A stretch of 64,000 bases of DNA from an uncultured Alphaproteobacteria bacterium (GCA_963831135.1 CAWHPH010000035.1:8704-72703), one strand, 5' to 3'; positions 12,615-30,453 are shown, counted from the stretch's first letter. Made by a program: numbers and translations. The notes: generated by a model not told the origin, from the sequence alone.

Positions 12615-12689
12615 TGGAGCGGGCGATGGGAATCGAACCCACGACACTCAGCTTGGGAAGCTGATGTTCTACCACTGAACTACGCCCGC
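12615..12689 (-). tRNA. tRNA-Gly (anticodon CCC), CCA encoded
   Basis: Hand-folded sequence: GCGGGCGTAGTTCAGTGGTAGAACATCAGCTTCCCAAGCTGAGTGTCGTGGGTTCGATTCCCATCGCCCGCTCCA. 7-bp acceptor stem, anticodon loop TTCCCAA, T-loop TTCGATT. Confidence 0.93.
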
Positions 12690-12691
12690 AT
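12650..12691. repeat. att direct repeat copy 1 (tRNA-Gly nt 1-40 plus 2 upstream nt)
   Basis: agcttgggaagctgatgttctaccactgaactacgcccgcat is identical over 42/42 nt to 30412..30453. Confidence 0.9.
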
Positions 12692-12746
12692 AACCTTTAT
12701 TTGATCGGTGTCTCTCGCATTCCGCCCTAACTCTTACCCGGAGAAT

Positions 12747-12780
12747 ACCCGGAGGTTCGAGTCGATCCGAACCTCCGGGT
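12747..12780. terminator. perfect 13-bp stem / 8-nt loop hairpin at the element's left end
   Basis: ACCCGGAGGTTCG-agtcgatc-CGAACCTCCGGGT. There is no clear U-tract, so its function as a terminator or insulator upstream of the tRNA is inferred only. Confidence 0.35.
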
Positions 12781-13081
12781 GAAATCCGCCGACACTATAT
12801 TATGGGCAGCGGGAAGCGCCAACTCCCCGCCGCGTATGGCCCGGCGCTCGCGCCGGGCCATTTTCATTTTGGACTTGACCGGCTTTTTAAGCTGGTCAAT
12901 TCGCCCGTAAGTTATTGCGGCGAAGTTGCAAACCCCTTCCCGAACCTCCACAGAGATAACCACGGTTGCGTCGGCGACTCGCGCGGGTGTATGAAAGATG
13001 CACCGTAGCGGCCCGCGTGCGCTCCTAACTGAGACACGCATTCCCCGCGACAGTCCCCACCGATCAGATAACCGAACGAGC

Positions 13082-13141
13082 GGCACTACATACGTTTTGT
13101 AGTGCCGGGGACGAGCCGCGCTACATCCGTTTTGTAGCGCG
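13082..13141. promoter_or_regulatory. two related 25-bp palindromes (putative operators) upstream of the Xis-like gene
   Basis: GGCACTACAtacgttTTGTAGTGCC (13082-13106) and CGCGCTACAtccgttTTGTAGCGCG (13117-13141). Centres are 35 bp apart. The second ends 16 nt before the ATG at 13157. Confidence 0.6.
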
Positions 13142-13156
13142 GGTGCGGAGCACATC

Positions 13157-13357
13157 ATGCGCGAACAACGCTTGTGGCCGATTTGGCTTTCGATTTCCGA
13201 AGCGTCCCGCGCGCTCGGTATCGAACGCAAAATTCTCTACGGATGGGTTGTCCAAGGGATGCCGATCTACAAGTGCGGAGTTCGCCGCAAGGTGCTGGTC
13301 GAGGACCTTGTTCGGTACATCCGCGCAAATCTGAAAACAGTGGAGCGTAAGTCATGA
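13157..13357 (+). CDS. excisionase/MerR-like helix-turn-helix DNA-binding protein
   Basis: 66 aa. LSISEASRALGIERKILYGWVVQGMPIYKCG is typical of the Xis/AlpA-like HTH family. It sits at the element end opposite the integrase. Confidence 0.7.
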   Translation: MREQRLWPIWLSISEASRALGIERKILYGWVVQGMPIYKCGVRRKVLVEDLVRYIRANLKTVERKS

Positions 13358-13896
13358 GCCAACTTCCCAATTACGCCGCAGAGGGCCGGATCAAAGCAGT
13401 GTGCGCAGAGAACGGCGTTCTCGCCGATTGCCTTGACGACATCGCACTGCAATTCCGCGAAGGCAAGTTGAGCGAGGCCGAGCTTCCCGCGAAGATCAAA
13501 GAGTGGAAGGCAACGCCCGATCATCATTACTTTCATCGCGGCGAAGGGGACGACAAAGAGCTTTTCGTTCGAGCGTTCGGCGAGTCGCCGTCGCTTCAAG
13601 CCAAGGGCGAAGTGTTCAAGAAGTACGGAGCGGCACGCGCGGCGGAAGTCGCTGCGCAGTTCGGGAACACGATCACCGAACTCAAGGCGGGCAAGACGCC
13701 CGACAGTTTCAAGACGAACGGCAACGGCGGCGATCACTCCGCTAACCCGTTCACTCGACTCCGCGTGAACGGAAAGATCAACGAAGCCGCAGCGGCCGAA
13801 GTCGCAAAGATGACCAAGGCGCTCGGCACCAAAAAAGTAGAAGCCATCGCACGCGCGGCCGGGATGACAATCACCGGCTTGCCGTTGCGGGCTTAA
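13354..13896 (+). CDS. hypothetical protein
   Basis: 180-aa ORF with an ATGA overlap onto the upstream gene. Confidence 0.55.
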   Translation: MSQLPNYAAEGRIKAVCAENGVLADCLDDIALQFREGKLSEAELPAKIKEWKATPDHHYFHRGEGDDKELFVRAFGESPSLQAKGEVFKKYGAARAAEVAAQFGNTITELKAGKTPDSFKTNGNGGDHSANPFTRLRVNGKINEAAAAEVAKMTKALGTKKVEAIARAAGMTITGLPLRA

Positions 13897-13908
13897 GGGG
13901 AGGCTCGA

Positions 13909-14271
13909 ATGGATAGTCGCACCAAAGAACATCTGCAATCGCAGGACACGGACATCGCTCGGCGTTCGAGCGTGCCTAAGCGGCATGTCCTCGTCACGCA
14001 CCCCGGCATGGCTTCGCAGACGCGCGGCACGCTTGGCGGACCAACACAAGGCAACCCACCGGACGCCTCGTCCCCGTCGCCGACTGATCCGTCGCGGCAG
14101 GGCAAGAGCTTCGCCGTTCCTGCCATCACGCACGGCATGTCGAGTCGTTCTGATCGCGGTCACTACGATCCGTCGTTCGCGCACGCGATCTTTTCTGAGG
14201 CCAGCCGCGACGTGACCGACTTCGCGCGGGACCTTCACACGGCTTTGCCGGGTGCAGGCAAAGAGGACTAA
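13909..14271 (+). CDS. hypothetical protein (low complexity)
   Basis: 120-aa ORF in the same operon orientation. Confidence 0.4.
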   Translation: MDSRTKEHLQSQDTDIARRSSVPKRHVLVTHPGMASQTRGTLGGPTQGNPPDASSPSPTDPSRQGKSFAVPAITHGMSSRSDRGHYDPSFAHAIFSEASRDVTDFARDLHTALPGAGKED

Positions 14272-14276
14272 CGACC

Positions 14277-14495
14277 ATGCGCGGCGAAATCAAATTCTTC
14301 GACGACAAACGCGGGTTCGGTTTCATCAAGATCGCGGGCGAGCAAAAAGATTTGTTCGTTCACATCACTGCCATTGAGAACGGGCCGCCGTTCACGGGCG
14401 ACATGGTGGAATTCGACATGGGGAACAACAAGCGCACCGGCAAGCAAGAGGCGCACAACGTCAAACTTGTAGGAGGGGGCAGTGGGAGCACCTAA
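14277..14495 (+). CDS. cold-shock domain (CspA-like) protein
   Basis: GEIKFFDDKRGFGFIKIAGEQKDLFVHITAI matches the RNP1/RNP2 layout of cold-shock domains. Confidence 0.85.
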   Translation: MRGEIKFFDDKRGFGFIKIAGEQKDLFVHITAIENGPPFTGDMVEFDMGNNKRTGKQEAHNVKLVGGGSGST

Positions 14496-14826
14496 TCAAC
14501 CACGCGACTCGCACGGCAGATGGGCCGCCGGAAATTCGGGTTCGTCTGCATCGGGCGACCATCAATCCGTGTCGCCGAGCCTCACTCACCGCAACGTCTC
14601 TGGCATCGCGGTGCCGCGCTCCATTCCTGTTGTTCGTCTCGACAACAAGGGAAGCCCGGACGTTAAGTCGTTCAAGGGTTCGGCACGATCAGACAAGATC
14701 GCGGCACTACGCGCCGTCGATCAGCGACACTTCGGAATTCCGGGTGATGTGGGAAATCGAGTCGGCAAGATGTTGCCCAAAGACCTACGCGGACCATCCA
14801 AGGCGGGATGGCCTTTCAACAATTGA
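14482..14826 (+). CDS. hypothetical protein
   Basis: 114-aa ORF with a 14-nt overlap onto csp. Contains NQPRDSHGRWAAG, a motif common in phage proteins. Confidence 0.45.
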   Translation: MGAPNQPRDSHGRWAAGNSGSSASGDHQSVSPSLTHRNVSGIAVPRSIPVVRLDNKGSPDVKSFKGSARSDKIAALRAVDQRHFGIPGDVGNRVGKMLPKDLRGPSKAGWPFNN

Positions 14827-14842
14827 ACCACAGGAGGCTCAC

Positions 14843-15337
14843 ATGGCCGTACAGACTGGAACTGGAAAGAAGCCGAAGCCGCCGGGCGCACCGGCTACGC
14901 TTAAGCAGGGCACGCGCCCGGCTGGCGAGACCTACAAGTCCGACTTGACCAAGGGCAATCTCGCCCGTGGTGGACTCGGACCTGTACGCAAGGACCCGAT
15001 CACGGGCGCGGAAGTCGCGCGCACCGGCTACGGTCAAAACGCATTCTCCGGCGCGTCAAGTTCGGGAGTCGAGGAAAGCTCCAAGCTGTCCGACTTCGAC
15101 ATCACGGTGGATGATCCGGCACTCGACAAGCTGGTCAAGCAAGGCATCGGCTCAAAGGTGAACGATGCCGATCAGGAAATGGTCGGACAAGAGCGGCCGG
15201 TCAGCGACGAACCGATCACACCGTCCTACGGCATGAAGTCGCCGAACATGAAGGCGGGCAGCTATGGAACGCTACCAGCAAAAGGACAGGGCACGTCAAC
15301 GGTCGCAACGGCGCAGCCGGTTCGTAAGCCGAGCTAA
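14843..15337 (+). CDS. hypothetical, probably disordered protein
   Basis: The internal ATG of ORF 14630..15337 is preceded by CAGGAGG. Confidence 0.5.
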   Translation: MAVQTGTGKKPKPPGAPATLKQGTRPAGETYKSDLTKGNLARGGLGPVRKDPITGAEVARTGYGQNAFSGASSSGVEESSKLSDFDITVDDPALDKLVKQGIGSKVNDADQEMVGQERPVSDEPITPSYGMKSPNMKAGSYGTLPAKGQGTSTVATAQPVRKPS

Positions 15338-15395
15338 CGTCACGGTCGGGCCGTTCACAGCAACGGCTCGGCGCTTGACCGATCTAAGTCTCGCC

Positions 15396-15539
15396 ATGGT
15401 CATTCCGTGGCGTGACTACAGCCAAGTCGGCATGACAACCGGCTGGCCGCAGTGGTGGATGAATGACGAGAACGAGTCGGAACGGATGCAAGAGATTTTG
15501 GACGCAACAGAGGACGAGGTTCTGCCATGGGAAATGTAG
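15396..15539 (+). CDS. hypothetical small protein
   Basis: Part of ORF 15264..15539. The start choice is uncertain. Confidence 0.3.
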   Translation: MVIPWRDYSQVGMTTGWPQWWMNDENESERMQEILDATEDEVLPWEM

Positions 15540-15844
15540 ACCTGTTTGATGCTCACAACCGACTCAACTTTCCGACTGACGAGGCTGTCGCTTCGATGCC
15601 GCCGGAAGTGCAAGAGCGGTTCAAGCCGGTTCGAGACGCGAAGGCCGTTCTCGATGCCGCGACCAAACACCGGGAGTCGGTAGCGCAGCGCATCGCGGCG
15701 AACGACGCCGAGCGCGCGACGACAACGGAGCAAATGAACATGATGCGCCCGAGTGGTACGGACGCGGATCGAACCCGCAACATCAAGGCGCACATCGCAA
15801 GCGAACAGCGTCAGAGACAACTCGAAAGAGGACTACCGGAATAA
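15527..15844 (+). CDS. hypothetical protein
   Basis: 105-aa ORF followed by a CCCCCG-N10-CGGGGG hairpin (15851-15872). Confidence 0.5.
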   Translation: MGNVDLFDAHNRLNFPTDEAVASMPPEVQERFKPVRDAKAVLDAATKHRESVAQRIAANDAERATTTEQMNMMRPSGTDADRTRNIKAHIASEQRQRQLERGLPE

Positions 15845-16053
15845 AAAGCTCCCCCGTTGTCATGAGCGGGGGTCTCGGCGGCGTGGACCACAGACACGCC
15901 CGCTACCGGCCGGGCGGCGGTCATCCTCCCGCCGTCCGGTCACCTTTCAAGGTTCGTCCGCTCCTGCACTCTACTGCCAGCGGGGGACGGCGGACGGAGC
16001 GGCCCGAGTATCTCTCCCTGAGTGCTCGGGCCGACCAAATAACGGAGTGAGCC

Positions 16054-16362
16054 ATGAGCGTGCACGATGTAATGCCACCGAAGCCGAAGGCCAAGAAGCC
16101 GGAGCCGTTCAACGTGCGCGCTGGTCGAATTCCGGTGCTCGATCACAAGAAGATCATGCGCGGTCATGTTGGGCCGAAGGCCACCGAAGCGACGTTGCCC
16201 CGGTTCGGAGTCAAGCACGGCGGCTCGTTGCAGACGGTGCAGGGTCGTCAGTGTTGGGTCGGTAACGAGCCGCTCGCCGTCGTCAGTGCAGAAGGCACGA
16301 ACCCGAACGCCGAGCTTCCACCGGCTCCCCCTCCACCGTCGAAACTCAAGGGCCAGTCATGA
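16054..16362 (+). CDS. hypothetical protein
   Basis: 102-aa ORF with GGAG upstream of the ATG. Confidence 0.5.
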   Translation: MSVHDVMPPKPKAKKPEPFNVRAGRIPVLDHKKIMRGHVGPKATEATLPRFGVKHGGSLQTVQGRQCWVGNEPLAVVSAEGTNPNAELPPAPPPPSKLKGQS

Positions 16363-17258
16363 GAAATCTAAAGGGCAAGGAATTCGAGGCCAAGCTCGCC
16401 GAAATTCTTGACACCGTTTCGCAGGACCCGGCGATGGAGCGCGCTATGCGATTGGCTGGCTACAGCCCAAAGATGATTTGGCTTTGGCTCAAGCGCAGCG
16501 GCGAAGGCGATACTAAGTATTTGGTCGCGTGGCCCGACAAGAAGGCGCGGAAAATCCAATTCTGCGATGCCGTTGTTCTCGCGCGCCGATTGCACAAAGT
16601 AAAAATGGACGCAACCATTCGCTCGGCCTGCGATGTCGGAATTCCCGAAGTTCAAATGCACGATGGTGCCGTTCTCTATGAGAAAGATGCGGCGCTTCTC
16701 GCCGAGTGGGGAGACGACAAAGAAGCGGCCGAACGCATCGGCGGCGTAATCGACTTCCCGTACAAGCACATCATCAACGAGCAAGGCAAGCGTGAGCGAA
16801 TTCCGCTCGTCCTCTACCGGCCTGCACCGGCTGCGCTGCGCCAGCATGTCATCCGCTCGCTAATCCCGTCCGAATTCAACCCGCCTGAACATCGGGTGAC
16901 ATCAACCGAGCACAGCGGGTCGGTGCTGATCTTGAACGCGAACCATCCGCCTTACGCGAAGGATTATCAGGCACCGCCGAGTCCGATCAAACAAGACTTG
17001 CAACAGCGCCTCGCCGATCTACGAGCACGCGGCCCGGCGCACAAGCACGCGACCGATAAGAACGGACTCAAAACCATTCCGAAGATCGGCACTGGATCAG
17101 TCAGCAACGATCCGCCGGAGCGGAATGGATACGGCGCAGCGCCGCAGGTTGATGCCGATGGTCATATCGTAGGTGCGAAGGTGCAGCCGATGATTAACGG
17201 CCGCACGGGTCAGCCCGCGCCGGGAGGTTTCAGCGCACTTACAGGACGGCCGACATGA
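16359..17258 (+). CDS. hypothetical protein (possible HTH/small-terminase-like N-terminus, weak)
   Basis: 299-aa ORF with an ATGA overlap upstream. Confidence 0.5.
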   Translation: MRNLKGKEFEAKLAEILDTVSQDPAMERAMRLAGYSPKMIWLWLKRSGEGDTKYLVAWPDKKARKIQFCDAVVLARRLHKVKMDATIRSACDVGIPEVQMHDGAVLYEKDAALLAEWGDDKEAAERIGGVIDFPYKHIINEQGKRERIPLVLYRPAPAALRQHVIRSLIPSEFNPPEHRVTSTEHSGSVLILNANHPPYAKDYQAPPSPIKQDLQQRLADLRARGPAHKHATDKNGLKTIPKIGTGSVSNDPPERNGYGAAPQVDADGHIVGAKVQPMINGRTGQPAPGGFSALTGRPT

Positions 17259-17572
17259 CCGATTTTATTGACAAGCTCACGCACAGCGAACCCGAGGACG
17301 TGCAGCAAGTCGGCACGGTCAATGCGCTCGGCGTGCGCAAGGTCAACATGATGGCCGTTCCCGAGCGCGCCGTGAGCGCAGAGGACATCGAAGCGCGGGA
17401 ACAAGCATTTCTCGACGCACCACAATTCCCTATCCCCTTTTGGGATTTGGACGACGGCCCGGCGCTCGAACCTTTGATGACTCAGGACCACGCCTTGCTA
17501 CGCGCGGCAGGCATCACCGCAGAAGAATGGGAACAAATCGTTCTCGAAGATCAATTGGAGAAAAGCAAATGA
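17255..17572 (+). CDS. hypothetical protein
   Basis: 105-aa ORF with ATGA overlaps at both ends. Confidence 0.5.
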   Translation: MTDFIDKLTHSEPEDVQQVGTVNALGVRKVNMMAVPERAVSAEDIEAREQAFLDAPQFPIPFWDLDDGPALEPLMTQDHALLRAAGITAEEWEQIVLEDQLEKSK

Positions 17573-18270
17573 CAAATCCACTCCGTCAGCAAATGGTCGC
17601 ACGGGCCGTGCAGCAAACGCAGAACGGCAAGATGGCGATCACCCTTCGCAACGTCGCCATGTTCCTGCCGGGACCGACCGCGTTCGATCCGAAGCTCAAG
17701 GCGCAAGTGGACTTTGAGCTTGATGCCGAGGACTTGGCACCGTATCTGCCCGCGCCGACGCCAGCGGTGGAAACACCTTCGCTCGCCGAGCGCCTGGCCG
17801 ATGTGGAAATCGAATTCGTGCCGCCGACTCCGGTTGAGCCGCCGGAGGTTCGTTATCAGCGACTCCAAAACCGTATGCTCGAACTGGAACGCGAACGCGT
17901 CGATCTTCGCTTCACCTACGACACGGCGATCCGCGACGAAATCAACGCGCGCAATGAACTGGACAAGATCGCCCGCGTGTTCATGAACGGGTTTGTGCGG
18001 ATCAGCCCGGACGAGTTGCTTAAGCAACACGCGGCATCCGAAGCCGAGACGCGCCGCAAGATCGCGGCCGGAGAAATTCCGAAGCCGCACCGCGTCAACA
18101 CCGTGGGGCCGTCTGCGCTTGATCGCTACATGGCTGCGCAGCGCGGCGGCAATCCCGGCTTTGCTGGTCGCGGCTATGCGCGCGGCGCTCAGCCCGCCAA
18201 CAAGCGCCTCATGTTCGATCCGAAGGCATTGCCCGGCTCGGGCCTGCCACAACTCAAGGAACCCGTATGA
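17569..18270 (+). CDS. hypothetical protein with coiled-coil-like middle
   Basis: MTNPLRQQ start is coupled to the upstream stop. Confidence 0.5.
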   Translation: MTNPLRQQMVARAVQQTQNGKMAITLRNVAMFLPGPTAFDPKLKAQVDFELDAEDLAPYLPAPTPAVETPSLAERLADVEIEFVPPTPVEPPEVRYQRLQNRMLELERERVDLRFTYDTAIRDEINARNELDKIARVFMNGFVRISPDELLKQHAASEAETRRKIAAGEIPKPHRVNTVGPSALDRYMAAQRGGNPGFAGRGYARGAQPANKRLMFDPKALPGSGLPQLKEPV

Positions 18271-18339
18271 AGCTCCCGCATTACATCCGGCTTGTAATGC
18301 GGGTCATCTGGCGGATTTGGGTGATGGAGCACTTCCACC

Positions 18340-18564
18340 ATGAGCACCAACGTAAAGCAACCGAAACGGAGCCGGGCTAAGCCGCTCGTTGCCGATGTGT
18401 CGGACTCGGCGTGCTTCGATGATCTTCGGTGGAAGGCTGGCACCGCCTACGCGACGTTTGCGAAGGACGGTTCGCAGTACACCTACGACATGAGCCGCGC
18501 GGACTTCAAAGAATGGATGGACAACCCGCTCGGCGAATTCTTCAACGCGAACGTAAGAGACTGA
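18340..18564 (+). CDS. KTSC domain-containing protein
   Basis: ...FDDLRWKAGTAYATFAKDGSQYTYDMSRADFKEWMDNPLGEFFNANVR resembles the KTSC family. Confidence 0.6.
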   Translation: MSTNVKQPKRSRAKPLVADVSDSACFDDLRWKAGTAYATFAKDGSQYTYDMSRADFKEWMDNPLGEFFNANVRD

Positions 18565-18567
18565 CCG

Positions 18568-19017
18568 ATGTCACGCGGACCGTGGAAGGCAGAGACACAC
18601 GCCCGGCGCAACGGCGGCGACGGTCATGGCCCGCTGTCTAATGCGCAGCGGACGCCGAACGATCACGTTGAGCCATGGAAGGATAAGCGCAAGGAAGCTC
18701 GGGCAAAGGTGAAGGCCGAGCTTGATGCGCTGCGCAGTAGCATTCTGTGGAAGGTGGCGAGTCAGAACCGCAAAGAGGCGTTGGCGCGCCACGCGCCGCG
18801 CTACATCGGGCACCCTTGCATCAAACACGACAACGCCGAGCGGTACACGGTGACGGGTCACTGTGTCGTCTGCGCGCGGGAAATCAGAGACGAAGTGCGC
18901 GGCATCGCCGTTAAGCCGCGCCTTGATCGCAAGCTACGGCCGACAGTCGCGGCAATGCGCAAGCCGGTGATCGCCGTGAGCCGGGGCTTCGATGACGAAC
19001 GGGCAGAAGTGTCATGA
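18568..19017 (+). CDS. hypothetical protein with GxPCxxH...RYxxxGxCxxC motif
   Basis: 149-aa ORF containing IGHPCIKHDNAERYTVTGHCVVCAREI. Confidence 0.5.
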   Translation: MSRGPWKAETHARRNGGDGHGPLSNAQRTPNDHVEPWKDKRKEARAKVKAELDALRSSILWKVASQNRKEALARHAPRYIGHPCIKHDNAERYTVTGHCVVCAREIRDEVRGIAVKPRLDRKLRPTVAAMRKPVIAVSRGFDDERAEVS

Positions 19018-19319
19018 GCATGGAAACGGATGAACTGGAATTCGATTTGACGAAACGCCGATGCGAGCGCGAAGGCTTCTATCTCGGGCGTCACAAGAAT
19101 TTCGATCCTGCGATGGGCGGCGGCGACTTGTACCTGATGCCGAAACAGAAGTTCGGCGGCGAGCGCAATCCGTCGCTGTTGAGCTACGCGACCAGCGACC
19201 AAATTCATCGCTATCTGAATGACGCAATTTCTCGAAAAAGAACGGAAGCCGTTGCGCATCCGTCAGGCCGTCAGGTCGTCAGATCATCGGAGCTTGAAGT
19301 CATGAACAAACAAACCTAA
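19014..19319 (+). CDS. hypothetical protein
   Basis: 101-aa ORF with an ATGA overlap. Its 3' end contains a CGTCAGG repeat cluster. Confidence 0.5.
   Translation: MSMETDELEFDLTKRRCEREGFYLGRHKNFDPAMGGGDLYLMPKQKFGGERNPSLLSYATSDQIHRYLNDAISRKRTEAVAHPSGRQVVRSSELEVMNKQT
19252..19282 (+). repeat. CGTCAGG 8-bp-period repeat cluster 1
   Basis: ttgcgcatc-CGTCAGGc-CGTCAGGt-CGTCAGa. Confidence 0.8.
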
Positions 19320-19384
19320 ATGCGCAAAGCGGCCCCGTGACCAGCGGGACCGCTTCACTTGCAAGGTGTTAGGAGCACCGTGCC

Positions 19385-19873
19385 ATGCCTGTTAAGAACC
19401 CCGAGATAATTCGCGCGGAGTCCGCTGTCAAGCGTGAGCTTGATCGGCTGGAACTGGTTGAGCGCGTGCCCGCGTTGCAGCGTGAAGCCGCCCGCAGCAC
19501 CGGACGATATGCACTCGACGAACGCGGCTATCCATTGCCGGTGCTGATCCTGCCACGCCATCCTGCCGTGATCGCCTACGTCAACGAATGCGCTGCGCAA
19601 TCGTCAGGCCGTCAGGCTGTCAGCGATTTGTGCACCGCTCGTCGAAATCTCAAAGCCGCTCACATTAACTACAAAGAACGCGTGCTCTACAGAACGCGCC
19701 ATGATATACGCGAGTGGTCGGACGGTGGCCGGTTCGTTTCATTGTCCGCCATCATCGAAGCCCGAGCCGACGCGATGCACTGGCGCAAGGTCATCAACAA
19801 GTTGGAAGCGGCAGAGAAGATGGAACAACAGAGAAGATGGAATGCCGCGCGCCTGCGCGTCACGCCGATCTAA
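19385..19873 (+). CDS. hypothetical protein
   Basis: 162-aa ORF with AGGAG upstream. Contains a second CGTCAGG cluster. Confidence 0.5.
   Translation: MPVKNPEIIRAESAVKRELDRLELVERVPALQREAARSTGRYALDERGYPLPVLILPRHPAVIAYVNECAAQSSGRQAVSDLCTARRNLKAAHINYKERVLYRTRHDIREWSDGGRFVSLSAIIEARADAMHWRKVINKLEAAEKMEQQRRWNAARLRVTPI
19596..19624 (+). repeat. CGTCAGG repeat cluster 2
   Basis: gcgcaat-CGTCAGGc-CGTCAGGc-TGTCAG. Confidence 0.8.
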
Positions 19874-19885
19874 GGACGGTCCCCT

Positions 19886-22315: not shown

Positions 22316-22373
22316 CGGTCGGCGCGCGGCGTATGGTTAACGGACTCCTACGCGGGGAGGCTCTTGAACTCGG

Positions 22374-22680: not shown

Positions 22681-22700
22681 GCCGTCAGGGCGTCAATGCG
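22681..22700 (+). repeat. CGTCAGG repeat cluster 5
   Basis: gc-CGTCAGGg-CGTCAATgcg. Confidence 0.7.
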
Positions 22701-22779
22701 CCCGCGACAGCAATGCGATTTCAATCCGATCTCCCTTGGTCGCAGCGCCATTCAAATCGGGGTCGCCAACAGGTGACCT

Positions 22780-24120
22780 ATGGGCGCGAAAAGCCCCCGC
22801 GATGTGAAATGGTATCGCCGACTATCCCAACTGTTCGCCGCGTGCGGCAGCAAGGCCGGTGACGGCGCTGTCGCCAAGGCCAAGCTCGAAGAAATGCTGT
22901 CAGTCAACGGGCTGACGTGGAACGACCTTCCCGAGCTACTGGCCGAAGCCAAGCGAGTCATGTCGGGCGAGCAAGAGCCAACGCCGCACGCCGATCCCGC
23001 CAAGCCCGGCCAGAAGCCGCCGCGCGACCTTGACATCATCCAACAGGTAACCGGGTTGCTTGATGTCTATCTCGACATCAAAGAGCACGAACGACTGGTC
23101 GTAGCGTTGTGGGTTCTCCACACCTACCTCCACCATCAATTCTCAGAGACTCCGAGGTTGATGTTCATCAGCCCGGTGGAGGGCGAGGGCAAGACCACGG
23201 CGTTGAACGTTTTGAACAAGCTGATCTTCCCGAGCGTCAAGGCGGCGAGCTTCACGGCTCCGGCGCTGGCGGCAGTGATCGACCGGGATCATCCTACTCT
23301 ACTACTGGACGAGGGCCGCAACCTCGATCTACAGAACAACATGCTCATGCGCTCCATCATGCACTCGGGCCATGAGCGCGGCGGCGTGCGGGTCATCTTG
23401 CGCGGCGGACAGCCGACAAGGTTCGAGACGTTCGGCCCGCTGTGCATCACCGCAATCGAAGAACTGCCATCCTACGAACTAATGAGCCGGGCGATCATCA
23501 TCCGGCTGCGGCGCTCTACGCGAGACGACATCCGAAAGTTTCACGAAGAAGATACGAAGTATGACCTGATCTACGAGAACGTCCGCAAGTGGGCGAGTTG
23601 GGCGCATTACAATCTCGACCTGCGCAATGTCGATCCGAAACTGCCGAACTTGAAGAACCGCCGGAAGGATAATTGGCGACCGCTGATCGCCATCGCCGAT
23701 GCACTCAACTACGGCGACCCGGCGCGCGAAGCGATGCAGAAATTCGACGGCCGGTACGAGGAAGCTCCGGGAGTCCTGATCCTGCGCGACATCAAGTCGG
23801 TGTTCGGCGATACCCATGCGATGCACAGCAAGGCGCTGGCTGACGAACTACAGAAGATCGAAACGTCGCCATGGTTCGACTGGAAAGGCAAGGATGGTTC
23901 CTACCAGCCGCACCCGATCACGCCGAACGACATCGCCCGGCTACTGCGGCCGTTTCAGATAAGGCCGCGCTCGGTTGAAATCGGTAGCGTCAACCTCAAG
24001 GGCTATCACCGCGACGACTTCCGCGAAGCGTGGGCCGCATACTGCCCCGACGATGACGCCAAGCCGAGCAAGCCCGACACTGTGGTGCAGTTCCCGGCGA
24101 AGGCGAGGAAGCAGTCATGA
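22780..24120 (+). CDS. DUF3631 domain-containing protein
   Basis: 446 aa. RRKDNWRPLIAIADAL...LRDIKSVFGD...ITPNDIARLLRPFQIRPRSV...KGYHRDDFREAWAAY matches my recollection of DUF3631. Confidence 0.7.
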   Translation: MGAKSPRDVKWYRRLSQLFAACGSKAGDGAVAKAKLEEMLSVNGLTWNDLPELLAEAKRVMSGEQEPTPHADPAKPGQKPPRDLDIIQQVTGLLDVYLDIKEHERLVVALWVLHTYLHHQFSETPRLMFISPVEGEGKTTALNVLNKLIFPSVKAASFTAPALAAVIDRDHPTLLLDEGRNLDLQNNMLMRSIMHSGHERGGVRVILRGGQPTRFETFGPLCITAIEELPSYELMSRAIIIRLRRSTRDDIRKFHEEDTKYDLIYENVRKWASWAHYNLDLRNVDPKLPNLKNRRKDNWRPLIAIADALNYGDPAREAMQKFDGRYEEAPGVLILRDIKSVFGDTHAMHSKALADELQKIETSPWFDWKGKDGSYQPHPITPNDIARLLRPFQIRPRSVEIGSVNLKGYHRDDFREAWAAYCPDDDAKPSKPDTVVQFPAKARKQS

Positions 24121-24248
24121 TCCTACTCGGTATCCTAATCGTGTTCGCAATCTGCTACGCGGGCGCGCGGCGAGAGGCGCGGATTTTCAATGAGCGCGAT
24201 AAGAGCAGGGACTATCGGACCACGTTCCAGCGCCTAGCGAAGTGGTGA
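24117..24248 (+). CDS. 43-aa putative single-pass membrane peptide
   Basis: Hand-translated MILLGILIVFAICYAGARREARIFNERDKSRDYRTTFQRLAKW. ATGA overlap with the DUF3631 stop. It is below the ORF-track size cut-off. Confidence 0.35.
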   Translation: MILLGILIVFAICYAGARREARIFNERDKSRDYRTTFQRLAKW

Positions 24249-24252
24249 CGCC

Positions 24253-24444
24253 ATGAGCAAGCATCCATGGAGTGACGAGCTTCAAGCGTTCTTAGAGGCG
24301 CACTCAAACTCAACGCCTGACGACATTCAACGCGACATGGGGAGCTTGCCCGAGAGCGTCGTGTTTGAGCTTTACCGCTACCTGACGGTGCGCGAAGTTA
24401 TAGAGGATGCCGTGCGCGACGGCTATTTGGAGCGGATCAAATGA
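24253..24444 (+). CDS. hypothetical small protein
   Basis: 63-aa ORF. Confidence 0.45.
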   Translation: MSKHPWSDELQAFLEAHSNSTPDDIQRDMGSLPESVVFELYRYLTVREVIEDAVRDGYLERIK

Positions 24445-24659
24445 GCGACGCCTTAGACCGCGCGATTGCCCGGCTTGCGGAAGCGCAACAGCGGCAAGAG
24501 GCCATGGCGAGCAACGCCCGCGCCGATGGCCGCGACGTTGCCGCTGCGTGCCAAGATCGGGACGTGTTCCTAGCTGACGTTGTTCGCCTTGGCTTGATGC
24601 ACTTACGCGCCATGCGCGAAATTGACCCGGACGGCGTGCCCGACTTCGGTGACCCTTGA
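24441..24659 (+). CDS. hypothetical small protein
   Basis: 72-aa ORF with an ATGA overlap. Confidence 0.45.
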   Translation: MSDALDRAIARLAEAQQRQEAMASNARADGRDVAAACQDRDVFLADVVRLGLMHLRAMREIDPDGVPDFGDP

Positions 24660-24753
24660 GCGGCGCGACCGTCGCGGAAACAAAAACTACGACCGAGCCG
24701 GAGCCGACGTTCACATTAACCGACTCGAAGGCGTAGCGTTGACCCCGAGCGCC

Positions 24754-25758
24754 TCACGACACCTTCCAGCCACGAAGTTTGTTCGCTTGGGCAACATACT
24801 TCGGGTTAGGTCGGTCGGACTTCGCTGGTGGAGAAATTAGAATTGGGCGAAGTGCGGAGCGAAATCTTGAAAGTCCAGCGGCTTTATTTTCCGTTTTAAG
24901 CGCAACGACCATCGGCTCGTTCACGTGGGTTTTGAAATCCTTGTCGAATGTCACAAGGGATTGATCGTAAGCCTTATGATGCAAGGCGCAAAGAGCCACA
25001 CCATTTGAGGTTCTGTCAGTGCTACCCTTTTCACCTACGGGAAGAATATGAGCGCCCTCAATCAATCTCAACTGGACTCCACACATTGCGCAACGGTGAG
25101 AATACACAGTTAGAACACGACGGCTAAAATCATTTGCGCGAACGGCCTTCCACGTCGAAACGAGTGCACGCTTGCGTTTTTCGGCAACGCCCGAGTCTAT
25201 TTCGCCTTCATCTACTGCATCAGGATCATCGCTAATACGCGATAGAACCTTAAACTCCCTTGGCACCCTTCCGCTGTCATGTAGGGCTTCGAGGTTCTCG
25301 ATGTATGTCCCCACGAAGTCCGGTCTAAATCCGATTGCGGTTTCACCGCTGGATTTTATCGACGGCGCGAAACCATTGAGAAGCGCCTTGCGCAGCGCCG
25401 CTTCGTTGATTTGTAGCGATGGTGACGAGCCTAGTGGGCCCAAGTGCTGGCGAATATCCCAACCGGCAAACACCCCAACATCATCCCACCAACCCAACAC
25501 CAAATTTCGCGTTCTCGCGTCTTTCTTAAATCGACTAACGCCTGTGACTTGTATTCGATACTCATTCGGGAGGCTTGTTCTACCACCGAACGTTATGTTC
25601 CAAATATAAACCTTGACGCGGTAGCGACGGTCATCTCGCCAGACACTGTAGTGCGCTGGATGTTTTGAACGCCCGGCGTGATAAAGCAAGCTCCAACCAC
25701 TAGCTTGCACCGCTTCTTCAAATTCTAGCAACAGCGCCTTTTTCGACAAGCGCGCCAT
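24754..25758 (-). CDS. HNH endonuclease with unassigned ~200-aa N-terminal domain
   Basis: HRCAMCGVQLRLIEGAHILPVGEKGSTDRTSNGVALCALHHKAYD is an HNH_2-type core. It is the last gene of the four-gene operon. Confidence 0.8.
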   Translation of the reverse strand: MARLSKKALLLEFEEAVQASGWSLLYHAGRSKHPAHYSVWRDDRRYRVKVYIWNITFGGRTSLPNEYRIQVTGVSRFKKDARTRNLVLGWWDDVGVFAGWDIRQHLGPLGSSPSLQINEAALRKALLNGFAPSIKSSGETAIGFRPDFVGTYIENLEALHDSGRVPREFKVLSRISDDPDAVDEGEIDSGVAEKRKRALVSTWKAVRANDFSRRVLTVYSHRCAMCGVQLRLIEGAHILPVGEKGSTDRTSNGVALCALHHKAYDQSLVTFDKDFKTHVNEPMVVALKTENKAAGLSRFRSALRPILISPPAKSDRPNPKYVAQANKLRGWKVS

Positions 25759-25764
25759 TGAGCT

Positions 25765-26889
25765 TCATCCCTTATATGGCATCGCCGCAAGCGACACGAC
25801 GTGCGAACCATTGTCGCGTTCGCCCTTAACTTCGCCCGCCTTAGTTTTTGTCTTTGACCCTCTAGTCACAATATGCTTTGGCCGCTTTTTTCCGCCGTCA
25901 GAGGGCAGCGGCTCGCCCTCGCCGTTCCAAAGCAAGCCCGGATGCGCGATACGATAGTAGCCGTCCGCGATCTTTGGGACTGGCTGTGGCTTCACATCCG
26001 CTCGTGATTTGAAGCGACCTAATGCGCCGTTGAGGTATTCCTCAACTAATTCAGAGCAGACCCATTTCCGGCCAAGCCGCTCGGCTACCTCTCCTGTGAC
26101 GCAACTGCCAGCGAAAGGGTCAAATACCTTATCGCCTGCATCCGTGAGCATACGGATGAAATATTCGGGCAACGCAGCCGGGAAGCGGGCAGGATGCGCC
26201 TTGATGCTTTTTTCTTGGCAATAGCGCAAATAAGCACTGTTGCTCTCCGTGTTGGGGACTGCGATGAGATTTGGAGGTATGGCCGCGCCATTGTTGATGG
26301 AAAATTTGCTACTAATGTCGTGTCCTGACGGGCGAAGCTTTGCCTTGTAGCCATTGACCAGCAACGTTTCCATGCTGGGGCTGTAGGGTTGAAGTACCCG
26401 CCGATTGCTGGCGCGCGGCCATTCGCTCTTGCTTAGCCACCAGACCGTATTGACAGCATCCTTTACGCGGATGCGGCGGATGTTTACCCATTCGGCTGGC
26501 GTGGGCAGCTTCGACGGGTTCCACCAGTAGAAATCTTGGGCAAGATGAAACCCAAATTCGTCGCACAGCATGATAAGCATTTTGAAGTGATACAAGCTGC
26601 GCACTGGTACGCCGGGCATCCACGCTCCGCCCAAATCAATCACGAGGCTGCCGCTAGTCTTGATAATCCGATGAAATTGTGTGGCGAACGCACGGAACCA
26701 TTCTAAGTATGCGTCCTCCCGAACGTTCCCGTATTCCTTCTTGCGTGTGAGTCCGAACGGGGGACTTGTCATTATTAGATCGACACTGTCAGCCTTCATG
26801 GTCCGCATCACTTCAAGACTATCCCCATGATAAATCTTGCCGTGCTTCGTCGCATGAAACACGCTTATGGAAGCTGGCTTCTTGGTCAT
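25765..26889 (-). CDS. beta-class N4/N6 DNA methyltransferase (SPPF motif, probably m4C)
   Basis: DLIMTSPPFG (motif IV) precedes VFDPFAGSCVTG (motif I), plus AHPARFP. ATGA overlap with the upstream gene. Confidence 0.85.
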   Translation of the reverse strand: MTKKPASISVFHATKHGKIYHGDSLEVMRTMKADSVDLIMTSPPFGLTRKKEYGNVREDAYLEWFRAFATQFHRIIKTSGSLVIDLGGAWMPGVPVRSLYHFKMLIMLCDEFGFHLAQDFYWWNPSKLPTPAEWVNIRRIRVKDAVNTVWWLSKSEWPRASNRRVLQPYSPSMETLLVNGYKAKLRPSGHDISSKFSINNGAAIPPNLIAVPNTESNSAYLRYCQEKSIKAHPARFPAALPEYFIRMLTDAGDKVFDPFAGSCVTGEVAERLGRKWVCSELVEEYLNGALGRFKSRADVKPQPVPKIADGYYRIAHPGLLWNGEGEPLPSDGGKKRPKHIVTRGSKTKTKAGEVKGERDNGSHVVSLAAMPYKG

Positions 26890-28289
26890 GATCCATCTCC
26901 CAAATCTATTTTCTTTAGGGTCATCGCGTGCTCAGCTTCCCTTCTAAACGCATCAACTAAGTAAGTTGCATTCGCGGTTATCGCCTCCAAGTCGGAGCGA
27001 TCAATCATTACGATTGCAAGGTTCGAGTCCGACATGATGCGGTTGGCATATCGGCGAGCCTCGCTCCCTATCTCGCCAGTCGTCACGATGACAATCACCG
27101 TGCTTTTGAGGAAATGAGTTAGCCCAACTTCCTTCGCAACGTCATCGAGTGAGACACGCGCAGTGTTTTTGCACTGAACCTGCCAGCGCGAATAGACGAG
27201 GCGGGCGGATTGGAATATCAGGTCAATTTCAGCGCCGCCGGTAGAACTAGCGCGCAGTCTCGTGGCAACATAATCCATCGCAAGACTACGCATGAGCTTA
27301 AAGGCGAGAGCTTCAAGCGCTAAACCAGCGACATAGCGATCCTTCGACTTTATTTCAGTCAAAATATCGGCGAGCGGCTTCGTCAACAGAGCGAGAAGCT
27401 TGGGATCAACTTGATTTTTCAGTTGATCGAGCAATGGCCCAAGGATTTCGGTCTTGACCTTAGATGTTGGGGAGACAAGAAATGGCTTTGCCCCTCGACC
27501 GGTAGTCGTCTTGGTTGCATTGATGTAGCCCGCATCTTGCAGCGCGTTCAGCACTTCTTTTGGCAGGCTCTTATCCGGGAACCGCACGCCGTAAGTGGCA
27601 GCCGCCAGTCGCGCTATTTCATTCGCTGGCTGGGGTGTAGTTACGCCACTGTTCGCCAGCGCCAATAAGAACGCGCGCTGTTGTCTACTGAATTTGGCGA
27701 TTGCGGGAAATTCTTCGGGATCGACACCGAGCACGGCCCGAAGCCGAATGGGATCGACTTGCCAACGGCTCCCAACGATGACTCCTGCCTTGGCGAGCCA
27801 TAATCGCATCATGCTGGGATGCTTGCCGCCACGCGGAAAATGCACGCCACGCTCAGCTAATGCCTCTCGTAAGGTGTCCAGCGTGATTTCCTCACCCGCA
27901 GCGACCATATCTTGCAGACATTGCACGAACGTCATGCCCCGCAAATTCAGAAGAATGTGCCGAGCAAGTTCCTCGTAAAGTGCAGTCTCGTCGCCGCGCA
28001 GGCCGTGTAGTTTCAATCCGAAATCAGTGAAGCGCGCTTCACGATCTATGATGCCATAAGCAATCATCCCGAGCTTGCAATTGTTGGCGAGCTTTCCCCG
28101 GTTGTAGCTTTTGTGATCTTCGTCGGTGGGTGCCGCCGCATGTCCAGTGAAATACTTATCAAGGATCGCTGCTTCTAGCGCATGAGGGTCGCCTTGGTGC
28201 GCCTCCGTAATCTCCAGTAAGTCGGGCAGGCTGATCTGCGACGGCGAAAATTCGCTGCCGAATGGTAGATCGCTCCGTTGCGTCACCAT
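26886..28289 (-). CDS. Mrr-like (PD-(D/E)xK) restriction endonuclease domain protein with long unassigned N-terminal region
   Basis: Start chosen at MVTQRSDLPFGSEFSPSQ (28289), 14 nt after the RHH stop. C-terminus LEALAFKLMRSL...GGAEIDLIF...WQVQCKNT...VIVIVTTGEIGSEARRYA. Confidence 0.7.
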   Translation of the reverse strand: MVTQRSDLPFGSEFSPSQISLPDLLEITEAHQGDPHALEAAILDKYFTGHAAAPTDEDHKSYNRGKLANNCKLGMIAYGIIDREARFTDFGLKLHGLRGDETALYEELARHILLNLRGMTFVQCLQDMVAAGEEITLDTLREALAERGVHFPRGGKHPSMMRLWLAKAGVIVGSRWQVDPIRLRAVLGVDPEEFPAIAKFSRQQRAFLLALANSGVTTPQPANEIARLAAATYGVRFPDKSLPKEVLNALQDAGYINATKTTTGRGAKPFLVSPTSKVKTEILGPLLDQLKNQVDPKLLALLTKPLADILTEIKSKDRYVAGLALEALAFKLMRSLAMDYVATRLRASSTGGAEIDLIFQSARLVYSRWQVQCKNTARVSLDDVAKEVGLTHFLKSTVIVIVTTGEIGSEARRYANRIMSDSNLAIVMIDRSDLEAITANATYLVDAFRREAEHAMTLKKIDLGDGS

Positions 28290-28303
28290 GGCTGCGCTCG
28301 TCC

Positions 28304-28483
28304 CTAACCGCGCTCGTCTAGTGGGCGGGGAATATCTTTGAGGTACTGCTGAATTGCGCGCCGAATAACCCAAGCCGCCGATACGTCGTTTCTCTCCGCG
28401 AGTTGGCACACTTCAGAGTAGTCACCTTCGCCGAGGGTGACTGTTAGCCGAGCAGGCTGCTTGGCGCGCTTTGGTCGGCCCAT
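28304..28483 (-). CDS. ribbon-helix-helix (CopG-like) regulator
   Basis: MGRPKRAKQPARLTVTLGEGDYSEVCQLAERNDVSAAWVIRRAIQQYL shows the beta-alpha-alpha pattern. Confidence 0.7.
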   Translation of the reverse strand: MGRPKRAKQPARLTVTLGEGDYSEVCQLAERNDVSAAWVIRRAIQQYLKDIPRPLDERG

Positions 28484-28493
28484 GCGACTCACT

Positions 28494-28512
28494 GTGGTGC
28501 AGTTTTCACCAC
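28494..28512. promoter_or_regulatory. inverted repeat GTGGTG-N7-CACCAC just upstream of the RHH start (candidate operator)
   Basis: Read directly. It lies 11-29 nt upstream of the ATG at 28483 on the minus strand. Confidence 0.4.
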
Positions 28513-28696
28513 GCATATCACGCACGGCGGTATTCGCAGCCGCCTCAACAGAGTTTTCCGCTGCTTAGTGGGCTTCCCGCTGGCCGAACTATCGCAAGCG
28601 CCACGGATGGGCGTGTGCGGGACGTACCCACATCACGGGGCCGCCGCATGACCGACCTTGACTTCTCCCCTCGCGCTTGTACACGTTTTGTTCTAA

Positions 28697-28975
28697 ATGA
28701 CAATAGAAACAATTGGCGAGGCGCTTTCGTTCGGCTGGCGCGTCGTGGCGCGGTGCTTCCGGGGCCGCGAGGATGGCCCTACGTCGCGGTCTAGTCGGGA
28801 GTGCACCTATCGCCGCGAATTGGATTTAGAGACGCTGGTCTGCACGCGCGGCCGGGCGTTTCCGTTGTCGCGGCTCGAAAGCCGATTGCGATGCCCGCGA
28901 TGCGGCAATAGGCGAATGGTGGTGATGTTTGAACCACCGCCACCGACTCGGATGGCGTCACCTTCAAAATTTTGA
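28697..28975 (+). CDS. small zinc-ribbon-like protein
   Basis: 92 aa ending in RLRCPRCGNRRMVVMFEPP. Confidence 0.5.
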   Translation: MTIETIGEALSFGWRVVARCFRGREDGPTSRSSRECTYRRELDLETLVCTRGRAFPLSRLESRLRCPRCGNRRMVVMFEPPPPTRMASPSKF

Positions 28976-28999
28976 AAAGGCGGTGTCGCCACGCGGCCG

Positions 29000-30291
29000 T
29001 CAGGCGGCTCGTTTCTTTTTCTCGGGGACTTGACCATGCAGGTAGGCCATCATCGTCTCGCTGATCCGGTGCTGCGCCTCAACGATCACGTCGCCGTTCT
29101 TCATCACCCAACGGATGATATACCTTTGCGACACGTTCTCGAACGCATGGCCCATGAGAAACTTCGACACGTCCGGGTCGATCCCGATACCGGCCGCCGT
29201 CGTCTTGAACGTCCTTCTCAACGCCATGCCGGTCGCAGGAAGATCGTCACGGCTCGCTTGAGTGCAGCCCGGCCAGATAAACGCATCATCGTGGCCGCGC
29301 TCGCCAACGAGCTTGATCGCGTCTCTGATCGCCGGGGTGAGCGGTACGGTGACGGTGTTCTTCATCTTCAGGTCGCCACCGCCAATTGTCAGTTCATCGT
29401 CGGTCAAGTCGCCCAACGAGTCCGCGCAAGCTCGCCCGGCCGGGCACCGACCAGCATGTTGACCAAGTGGAACGACTGCCGCACCGGCCGAAGCGCCTTC
29501 CACTTCTCATTCCAGCCGTGGAAGTCCGCCGGAGCCATACCTTTCTTCTCGCGCGCCTCAATGGCGAAGTCCACCGCAGCGGTCGGCAGGTTCACTTTCG
29601 ATAGTTTCAGGTCGCGGCGGGTGCGCTTCTTATACAGCGCGCGGACGATCCTCGCCGCATGGTTGCCGCTGACCGGCCCATGCTTCTTGACCATCAACGC
29701 GTGCCAGTCGGCGAAGGCGTCGGGCCGCTCGCTCATTTCGACGAGGGTCCAGTTCTTCCATTGCGGCAGGATGATTTGATTGCCCAAATGGCGGACGTTC
29801 TTGGCCCAACGCGCGGGCTTGCCACGCTTGGCGGCGAGTTGTTCGAGGTGCAGCAAATAGTCCTCGAACGCCTCGCCGAGCTTCACGCTGTCGCGTTTGC
29901 CTACGGGCAAAGTGCCAGTGATGGCCTTGGCGGCTTCGACTCGCGCCTTGTCACGCGCGGCGGCAACGTCAACGTGATCGTCGGCCCGCTGCAACGTCGG
30001 CTGCGGGCCGATGTATTCTCCGACCCGAGTGACGACAGGACCCGTGTCACGGCCGCCTACAACGGCGCTGGCGCGTCGGCCGCGATCATAGTGGCCCAAC
30101 GGCACGCAGGTGTAGATGCGCTTACCGTGGTCGCTGCGCTCGTTATAGAACTGCCATTGATGACGGACCTTGCCGAGCCGCAATTGCAGCCCTTTGATTT
30201 GACTGTCGCGCAGCAGCATCGGCTTGCCTTCGGCGAAGTCGATCAGGGCATCAACAAAGCCGTCGTGCAGGTCGGCGGTTCTCTTCTCCAT
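29000..30291 (-). pseudogene. tyrosine integrase with one frame break near 29400-29420
   Basis: ORF 29404..30291 (N-terminal/SAM-like part ...LVGARPGELARTRWA) and ORF 29000..29503 (...MALRRTFKTTAAGIGI...LMGHAFENVSQRYI) lie in different frames. Confidence 0.8.
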
Positions 30292-30411
30292 GACGCTTTA
30301 CCCGTAAATTACCCGGAGCGACGGATCGTCGTCCGACCTTTGTTCACGGGGAGAAATGCGCGCCGACTATAGGTTTTTCAAGCAAATCTGGGTTTCAGGG
30401 TTAATGGAATT

Positions 30412-30453
30412 AGCTTGGGAAGCTGATGTTCTACCACTGAACTACGCCCGCAT
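30412..30453. repeat. att direct repeat copy 2 (orphan 5' half of tRNA-Gly)
   Basis: Identical 42-mer. The flanks differ on both sides. It lies 121 nt upstream of the minus-strand integrase start. Confidence 0.9.

Follow-up and report, generated by a model that had tools for sequence, protein, structure and literature searches.

A 17.8-kb element bracketed by 5′ halves of tRNA-Gly(CCC): evidence for reverse-polarity integration at an anticodon stem–loop

Introduction

Island-finding tools and textbook accounts assume that elements integrating at tRNA genes carry the gene's 3′ end, the host promoter being kept. Here we describe the opposite arrangement in a 64,000-nucleotide stretch of DNA from an uncultured Alphaproteobacteria bacterium (GCA_963831135.1, CAWHPH010000035.1:8704–72703; this whole stretch is referred to as the window, and positions are counted from its first letter). 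The stretch contains an integrative element, which we call E_R, lying between two copies of the 5′ half of tRNA-Gly(CCC). E_R was very probably inserted by its own integrase into the anticodon stem–loop of this gene, site-specifically and in reverse polarity, such that the 5′ rather than the 3′ portion of the gene became duplicated.

Reverse polarity has already been published, and it is rare. The precedent is the Mesorhizobium loti element of Zhao & Williams (2002), as cited in PMC6563490; the passage concerned calls use of the 5′-distal tRNA region 'considerably less frequent', citing that study along with several archaeal cases. As other papers cite it, the M. loti element displays the same phenomenon as E_R. 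There is no Mesorhizobium protein among the homologues of the E_R integrase, and E_R adds to the precedent a multi-genome clade, a partition of single-nucleotide polymorphisms (SNPs) and a conserved architecture of promoter and arms. In the pTN3-like integrases of Thermococcales (Cossu et al. 2017; Krupovic & Bamford 2008), as summarized in the review PMC8371274, attB is the 5′ half of a tRNA gene, and expression of the rebuilt tRNA is attributed to the promoter of the integrase. By analogy, this would fit the promoter that we place upstream of the 5′ half-tRNA and integrase in the excised E_R circle. In these archaeal 'suicidal' integrases, by the same summary, the attachment site (att) lies inside the integrase gene, which is split into int(N) and int(C) on integration, whereas in E_R about 120 nt separate att from the integrase ATG downstream and the open reading frame (ORF) is unsplit, being continuous in a second assembly of the locus, contig_23723.

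Conventional integrases of the anticodon-loop class (one of the sublocation classes of Williams 2002) and P4-like integrases with an Arm-DNA-bind_3 domain share with E_R a crossover at the symmetric anticodon stem–loop, an integrase beside att and arm-type repeats. E_R differs from them in the reversed orientation of the tRNA gene with respect to the attP arms; two of its own relatives (L109 and L117) act at this tRNA-Gly(CCC) loop in the conventional way, with a 3′ fragment. The dusA-specific integrases (PMC4482086) also insert at the 5′ end of their target and restore the gene, but dusA is protein-coding. Klebsiella clade I.d integrases (bioRxiv 10.1101/2020.11.02.365908) direct islands upstream of the arg2 tDNA; unlike in E_R, the D-loop is involved, the hosts are Gammaproteobacteria and the integrases are others. 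The E_R family is a new and well-documented bacterial instance of reverse polarity. With about 20 relatives, the locus is a clean bacterial example of it, in which one tRNA gene is used from both sides by two unrelated integrase families; this is relevant to the evolution of att-site specificity around a tRNA stem–loop with dyad symmetry. Reverse-polarity islands and 5′ tRNA fragments are easily missed or misannotated in metagenome-assembled genomes (MAGs).

A repeated 5′ tRNA half bounds E_R

The sole tRNA that ARAGORN calls in the window is a Gly(CCC) on the minus strand, which scores 72.5 bits with the Rfam tRNA model RF00005. The features that define the element are as follows.

12615–12689, minus strand: complete tRNA-Gly(CCC) (ARAGORN; Rfam RF00005)
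12650–12691, minus strand: distal att copy, far from the integrase; tRNA nt 1–40 plus 2 nt, fused to the tRNA 3′ half (42/42 identity)
30412–30453, minus strand: integrase-proximal att copy; displaced host 5′ tRNA fragment, joined to the native promoter region of the tRNA (flank homology to L026 and L122)
12692–30411, no strand: body of the integrated element E_R (missing from the syntenic loci L122 and L026)
29000–30291, minus strand: tyrosine integrase of E_R (frameshifted in the window; intact, 430 amino acids, in contig_23723)

An initial annotation of this DNA had claimed a perfect 42-bp direct repeat of the tRNA-Gly(CCC) 5′ half, ending in the anticodon stem's 3′ side and with flanks that differ right outside it. 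All of this proved accurate. Positions 12650–12691 and 30412–30453 are identical at 42/42 positions and comprise nt 1–40 of the tRNA plus 2 upstream nt. In linear numbering the anticodon loop TTCCCAA is nt 31–37 and the 3′ stem strand GCTGA is nt 38–42, so that the last bases of the repeat fall within this 3′ strand; beyond the two copies, the sequence diverges at once on both flanks. Presence of the 42-mer at many loci, which the initial annotation had named as a finding that would undermine its proposal, was not seen within the window, where the block has only 2 matches with up to 3 mismatches tolerated. Shuffled controls gave no match (0/100 shuffles), and the 3′ half of the tRNA (12615–12649) is single copy in the window.

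With one 42-bp copy included, the E_R unit measures 17,762 bp. The GC content of its body is 0.52–0.63, against 0.63–0.71 further right. Both repeat junctions are reproduced in an independent assembly (ENA ERZ25039509 contig_23723; L087, L084) and the left one also in the NCBI metagenome contig JBLFKX010081014.1 (L088). The layout is that of a tRNA island as defined by Islander, with a complete tDNA, a fragment in the same orientation and an integrase between them, the 5′ fragment here lying upstream of the tDNA; the configuration filter of Islander already permits 5′ fragments in that position.

Related loci lack the element

The initial annotation also predicted an empty site, for which the expected attB is cgaacccacgacactc + nt 1–40 + at + gcgccgagcatagcg. 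Such a site exists in L122, and its promoter side exists in L026 as well. L122 was found through the integrase of a second island (integrase_L), and in it integrase_L, the tRNA (75/75 identical), the native promoter flank and a thioesterase gene follow one another with nothing between. Positions 9962–11149 of L122 match window 11532–12689 and positions 11110–11169 match window 30412–30470. Synteny runs on to window 41102, and window 12690–30411 is absent from L122. A search with the thioesterase gene just right of E_R returned 80 loci, among which L026 is the only tRNA-syntenic one. There, an identical tRNA-Gly(CCC) adjoins a 5′ flank homologous to the window from 30454 onward, with synteny over 10 kb. 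For the 3′ flank, L147 (filled) and L026 (empty) form a pair with the same DUF3311 gene and tRNA. In L122 and L026, and in the comparison of L147 with L026, the island is precisely absent from related genomes in the sense used by Islander.

By this homology, the right flank of E_R is the native promoter region of the tRNA. The fragment beside the integrase had been taken initially for a promoter-proximal 5′ tRNA half, a description with which the match of its flank to L026 and L122 agrees. Within this flank we note one candidate.

30460–30489, minus strand: candidate native host tRNA promoter; TTGCTC (30489–30484), 18-nt spacer, TATGCT (30465–30460), read from sequence

The candidate scores below the threshold of a consensus scanner. 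Its CTTGC...GCTATGCT/GCTATTCT pattern recurs at most related loci, upstream of their tRNA fragment, and the empty site L026 shows it as well. In the integrated state, the candidate faces the 5′ tRNA fragment and, beyond it, the integrase gene, and neither a terminator-like site nor a separate sigma-70-like promoter was seen in the 120-nt gap between att and integrase.

SNPs place the exchange in the anticodon stem–loop

The origin of the two tRNA halves can be read from a MAG (MFD02248.bin.1.117) in which the element spans a contig break. One contig (L092) carries the host promoter, the 5′ fragment and the integrase; the other (L119) carries the distal end of the element, the complete tRNA and a host transporter gene. 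The displaced fragment in L092 reads GAACGACAGC. In the complete tRNA of L119, the element-type sequence GAACATCAGC is joined to GCTGT, the 3′ stem strand of the host type. In both L119 (1594–1668) and L143 (63–137), the rebuilt tRNA-Gly(CCC) combines element strand TCAGC with host strand GCTGT. The topmost pair of the anticodon stem in this chimera is a U:U mismatch, and ARAGORN nevertheless calls it a tRNA.

This SNP partition shows that the 5′ half of the functional tRNA gene is element-derived and that exchange took place between nt 27 and nt 40. In L092/L119 and L143, the block of identity between attP and attB falls on the tRNA's 5′ part, a half that the rebuilt gene has taken from the element. 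In L093 and L096, the match to the tRNA breaks off precisely where the anticodon loop finishes on its 3′ side. The crossover most likely occurs at the 7-nt loop TTCCCAA, as a classical 7-bp overlap. The window tRNA (12615–12689) would likewise be recombinant, with nt 1–40 from E_R and its 3′ part from the downstream DNA, here probably a second island, E_L. Near-identical distal arms adjoin six different 3′ flanks (in the window, L119, L143, L144, L145 and L147), which points to recent mobility.

Reverse polarity recurs across the E_R integrase family

That E_R is an integrase-bearing element was claimed from the outset. This holds to the extent that the element has its own tyrosine integrase; the ORF as it stands in the window, though, is split. 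A 1-nt deletion near 29405, between ...RTRWA and DLTDD... in the reading, breaks it into an N-terminal piece (29404–30291) and a C-terminal piece (29000–29503), the latter with a weak match to the PHROG_1 integrase. Over 21 kb of element and right flank, the window and contig_23723 differ by 17 substitutions and 6 indels. In an alignment of 36 homologues, R284, K309, R359 and Y391 never vary and conservation of H382 is 90% or more, giving the C-terminal R...K...(H)xxR...H...Y residues of a tyrosine recombinase. The first His of HxxR is replaced by Ala in the E_R integrase clade (GMALRRT). PF00589 is carried by homologues at up to 58% identity, with or without PF13356, the N-terminal arm-binding domain of P4-like integrases, which is recorded only for homologues at about 35–37% identity (P0041–P0046). 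The best match of the E_R integrase in the genome collection is 80%, and no relative occurs in 50,697 phage records.

Alignment of E_R integrase homologues yielded 29 genomic loci. In 17 of these, a tRNA-Gly(CCC) fragment lies 120–600 nt upstream of the integrase and in the same sense, beginning at nt 1 and stopping at nt 37–42, with a host-type promoter (CTTGC...GCTATGCT) just upstream of it in most. None of the 17 has a complete tRNA-Gly(CCC) within up to 10 kb on each side where the contig allows. The JGI contig L121 is a further example of a 5′ fragment upstream of the integrase. Duplication of the 5′ rather than the 3′ portion, first proposed from the window alone, recurs in these 17 genomes, and the polarity is proven by the SNP partition. 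Reverse polarity is a family trait of E_R-type integrases, a group of soil Alphaproteobacteria.

The complexity of the window locus leaves room for another history, in which a conventional 3′ insertion was followed by an inversion, a deletion or a second insertion that mimics a 5′ duplication. This is extremely improbable. The same 5′-fragment geometry stands beside homologous integrases in at least 17 genomes of different species, and the different host flanks of those loci disfavour a single ancestral rearrangement. The window, moreover, contains no 3′ fragment, and the SNP partition assigns the 5′ half of the intact tRNA to the element.

Insertion in reverse polarity extends to other tRNA genes. 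Beside distant family integrases we found a 5′ fragment of tRNA-Lys(CTT) in L104 and of tRNA-Arg(TCT) in L111. In L109 and L117 the integrase is accompanied by a 3′ stretch of tRNA-Gly(CCC) that begins at about nt 29 and lies antisense to the integrase, and L102 and L116 are alike but with tRNA-Gly(TCC). In all cases the integrase reads away from a displaced tRNA fragment ending at the anticodon loop, and it is the orientation of the tRNA gene that varies. Reversal of the target is made possible by the dyad symmetry of the anticodon stem. In a neighbour-joining tree, most reversed Gly(CCC) integrases are set apart from conventional ones; a reversed Gly(CCC) sub-group (L099, L106, L100 and L108) and the reversed Lys(CTT) integrase of L104 branch on the conventional side.

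Two loci show further arrangements. In L103, the sister of L104, the tRNA-Lys(CTT) immediately upstream of the integrase is complete instead. Positions 9965–15735 of L091 form a tandem array, made up of a degraded element that has lost its proximal att, a distal arm, a 5′ tRNA fragment and a second family integrase (37% identical).

A second island occupies the 3′ side of the tRNA

The intact tRNA had been described as preceded by element DNA from 12692 onward. This is correct, but a second island on the 3′ side of the gene had been overlooked.

11571–12566, plus strand: integrase of the second, conventional island E_L, not part of E_R (PF00589)

The E_L integrase is unrelated to that of E_R and is convergent with the tRNA, whose 3′ end lies 48 nt away; window 1–12614 differs from the host flank of L026. 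After the E_L integrase homologue, 15 of 18 related loci have a complete tRNA-Gly in convergent orientation (CCC in 14, TCC in 1). Three E_L-type islands have a direct repeat from tRNA nt 27/28 to the 3′ end (47–49 nt), and a fourth has a shorter one (nt 45–74). This makes the E_L integrase family a conventional one that shares its anticodon-loop target with E_R. A left end of E_L was sought through a 3′ tRNA fragment or a direct repeat, and none was found in the window or in variant contigs.

Because an unrelated integrase family uses the same loop with normal polarity, a tRNA gene could be rebuilt entirely from two mobile elements. With a conventional island opposite that uses this loop, the window tRNA becomes a candidate for a gene composed wholly of mobile-element DNA; flanked by islands on both sides, it may hold no original host sequence.

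The neighbouring integrase could itself have moved the 17.8-kb segment, given that it is intact in the window where that of E_R is frameshifted, and that its family acts at the tRNA-Gly(CCC) anticodon loop. We regard this as very improbable. Its family leaves repeats of tRNA nt 27/28–75, not nt 1–40. Furthermore, E_R-type ends occur with E_R-type integrases and without the second integrase in L092/L119 and L147, and L122 has the second integrase without E_R.

The distal arm carries a candidate promoter and putative arm-type motifs

The initial annotation held that the element must supply the promoter of the rebuilt tRNA, and a promoter-like site conserved at seven distal ends would fit this idea. 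The seven ends, in six sequence versions, have in common about 130 nt running up to the tRNA, and are unrelated further upstream. Three features of the two arms are relevant here.

12794–12822, minus strand: candidate element-borne promoter, P_E; TTGGCG (12822–12817), 17 nt, TATAGT (12799–12794), a consensus match
12735–12781, minus strand: putative arm-type site cluster of the distal arm; two direct CTCCGGGTA repeats and an inverted imperfect copy
30298–30318, minus strand: putative arm-type site pair of the integrase-proximal arm; CTCCGGGTA-ATTT-ACGGGTAA, with 7 nt between its end and the integrase ATG

P_E sits about 105 nt upstream of tRNA nt 1. It is conserved in L143, L144, L145, L119, L091, L146 and L147, conservation stopping just upstream of the −35 hexamer; three elements with a 3-nt insertion in the spacer have a TAATAT hexamer at 17-nt spacing instead. 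An element promoter would be unneeded if the rebuilt tRNA were poorly expressed or non-functional, with GGG read by another tRNA-Gly. Persistence of the mismatched chimeras in L119 and L143 hints at such relaxed constraint. Set against this, ARAGORN recognizes the chimeras as tRNAs, and every element keeps a perfect nt 1–37 or more together with the conserved upstream block, which implies selection to rebuild the tRNA gene. Loss of function is, in our judgement, improbable.

The direct CTCCGGGTA repeats of the distal arm (12754–12746 and 12743–12735) are spaced 11 bp. They are preceded, downstream of P_E, by the inverted imperfect CCGGGTA copy, which forms the other arm of a hairpin at 12747–12780. 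The window has 4 occurrences of CYCCGGGTA where 0.41 would be expected, 3 of them at the element ends. The 11-bp-spaced pair upstream of the integrase is kept in L090, L092, L094, L095, L097, L105, L110 and L121, though the integrases of these relatives are only about 45–77% identical. Their placement and retention suggest that the CCGGGTA repeats are arm-type sites for integrase or excisionase.

The perfect 13-bp hairpin at 12747–12780 had been proposed as an insulator of the tRNA. Were it a terminator or insulator, the real tRNA promoter would be expected in the last ~55 nt before the gene, where a conserved A/T-rich stretch, CAAATAAAGGTT, lies just upstream of the tRNA; the leader containing the hairpin does fold well (−39.9 kcal/mol, z = −3.0). 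Yet the stem is followed by no U-run, the L119 fold is no better than shuffled sequence (z = −0.5), and a sigma-70-like hexamer scan gave no candidate −35/−10 pair between hairpin and tRNA. The hairpin amounts to the inverted CCGGGTA pair with a lineage-specific extension. Comparison across elements shows sequence conservation at the stem base only, with no conservation of the upper stem and no covariation, and does not support the hairpin as an RNA structure. The proposal of an insulator fares poorly on position too, the hairpin lying downstream of P_E and its base being the motif of both att arms. Since CCGGGTA motifs occupy both arms and the fold elsewhere is unexceptional, we read them as arm-type binding sites and consider an insulating hairpin with a tRNA-proximal promoter unlikely.

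A separate, strong plus-strand hairpin with terminator-like features (12836–12861; 11 bp, then TTTCATTTTG) lies just inside the distal end, oriented to stop transcription coming from the tRNA side. It overlaps a match to the Rfam family isrO at 12816–12864 (27 bits against a gathering score of 42), which was judged to be due to chance.

A model for integration and promoter exchange

The observed boundaries, empty sites, polarity, crossover window and family trait lead us to the following scheme. The attP of E_R would consist of the element's own promoter, a copy of tRNA nt 1–40 and then the integrase gene. The integrase would recombine attP with the anticodon stem–loop of the host tRNA-Gly(CCC), the target gene being reversed relative to the attP arms, by strand exchange within nt 27–40 and most likely across TTCCCAA. 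At the integrase end, the predicted product is host promoter, host 5′ half-tRNA and integrase gene; at the far end, it is element promoter and element 5′ half joined to the resident 3′ half, making a complete tRNA.

Transcription would change hands in the process. In the excised circle, P_E would act as the integrase promoter, transcribing the 5′ half-tRNA and then the integrase. Integration would hand P_E over to the rebuilt tRNA, which it would then drive, and the host tRNA promoter would read into the integrase gene, in effect a promoter swap. The integrated integrase would in this way come under a strong, growth-rate-regulated tRNA promoter, with the recombination state switching transcription of both integrase and tRNA. 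A wider reading is that reverse polarity at Gly(CCC), Lys(CTT) and Arg(TCT) is not a rare accident but a stable strategy, in a sizeable clade of integrases of soil Alphaproteobacteria, that couples integrase control to the host tRNA promoter. We put this forward tentatively, and with more doubt than confidence.

Several points weigh against the scheme set out here. The predicted attP junction of the circle (caaataaaggttat + tRNA nt 1–40 + aattccattaaccc) has no match in JGI metagenome contigs, and the integrase-proximal junction has none in IMG/VR; a looser junction pattern turned up just one further integrated copy, L121. With no circular junction in the JGI metagenome or IMG/VR, current excision of E_R is a candidate activity only. 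The frameshift of the window integrase may reflect decay or a sequencing error. Its fragments gave no Pfam match, and none is recorded for the intact 430-amino-acid protein. P_E is proposed from its consensus match and its conservation, and the block around it could be conserved purely as an att arm. Lastly, the tree that separates reversed from conventional integrases is a rough neighbour-joining tree that includes partly frameshifted MAG sequences.

Cargo of E_R and E_L

Searches of Pfam, PHROGs, NCBIfam, PADLOC and PDB sequences left most cargo ORFs without annotation. The following features of E_R could be assigned.

13157–13357, plus strand: HTH_17 excisionase-like protein, 66 amino acids, a candidate recombination directionality factor (PF12728, E = 3e-5, 24.6 bits, just under the cut-off of 27)
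14277–14495, plus strand: cold-shock-domain protein
19886–21256, plus strand: primase-polymerase-like protein, 456 amino acids (tblastn, 25–29% identity to phage proteins)
21543–22752, no strand: repeat-rich 1.2-kb stretch with no ORF of at least 90 amino acids (8-bp-period CGTCAGGN and inverted repeats)
22780–24120, plus strand: DUF3631 protein, 446 amino acids (PF12307, E = 7.5e-26)
24754–28409, minus strand: restriction-modification-like cargo, namely an MTaX1/HNH protein, an N6/N4 methyltransferase and an Mrr-type nuclease

The primase-polymerase-like protein is the sole phage-like product of E_R. Some of its phage matches are annotated as DNA primase-polymerase, and it has no Pfam, PHROG or PDB sequence match. 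DUF3631 proteins often go with replication modules. Capsid, portal, terminase and tail genes were absent among the larger ORFs tested with Pfam and PHROGs, and relaxase and type IV secretion Pfam domains were absent among the ORFs scanned, which covered small ORFs only in part. E_R is best described as a small, replicative, integrative element, and it looks plasmid- or satellite-like.

JGI names homologues of the excisionase-like protein 'excisionase family DNA binding protein'. The same module also occurs without a tRNA at 3300–4200 of L141/L142, beside Flp/TadE pilus genes and a different Arm-DNA-bind_3 integrase.

The cargo of E_L (window 2622–12614) includes a resolvase (2956–3585), a MmeI-type IIG restriction-modification gene (3774–6062), a BrnT toxin, a DEAD helicase and a T5orf172 protein, and several of its ORFs are frameshifted in the window relative to contig_23723. 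Compared with that contig, window 1–12593 is 98.8% identical (135 substitutions) and 12780–34118 is 99.9% identical (17 substitutions), so the two sides of the tRNA have diverged from it to different extents. Three contigs of ERZ25039509 share window 1–2621 (L083 to 3603) and then continue into entirely different DNA. Relative to L081 and L083, one breakpoint falls just after a cyclase gene (2621) and one just after the resolvase gene (3603), with no att-like repeat at either.

The ORF-poor stretch of E_R at 21543–22752 may be an origin or operator region. It contains the fourth CTCCGGGTA copy of the window, at 22193–22213, with an inverted CCGGGTAA partner. Intergenic clusters of the 8-bp-period CGTCAGGN, some of them inverted, lie at 19245–19282, 19586–19623, 21545–21589, 22581–22610 and 22674–22703. 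The largest of these clusters flank the 1.2-kb stretch upstream of the DUF3631 gene and could be iterons or operator sites.

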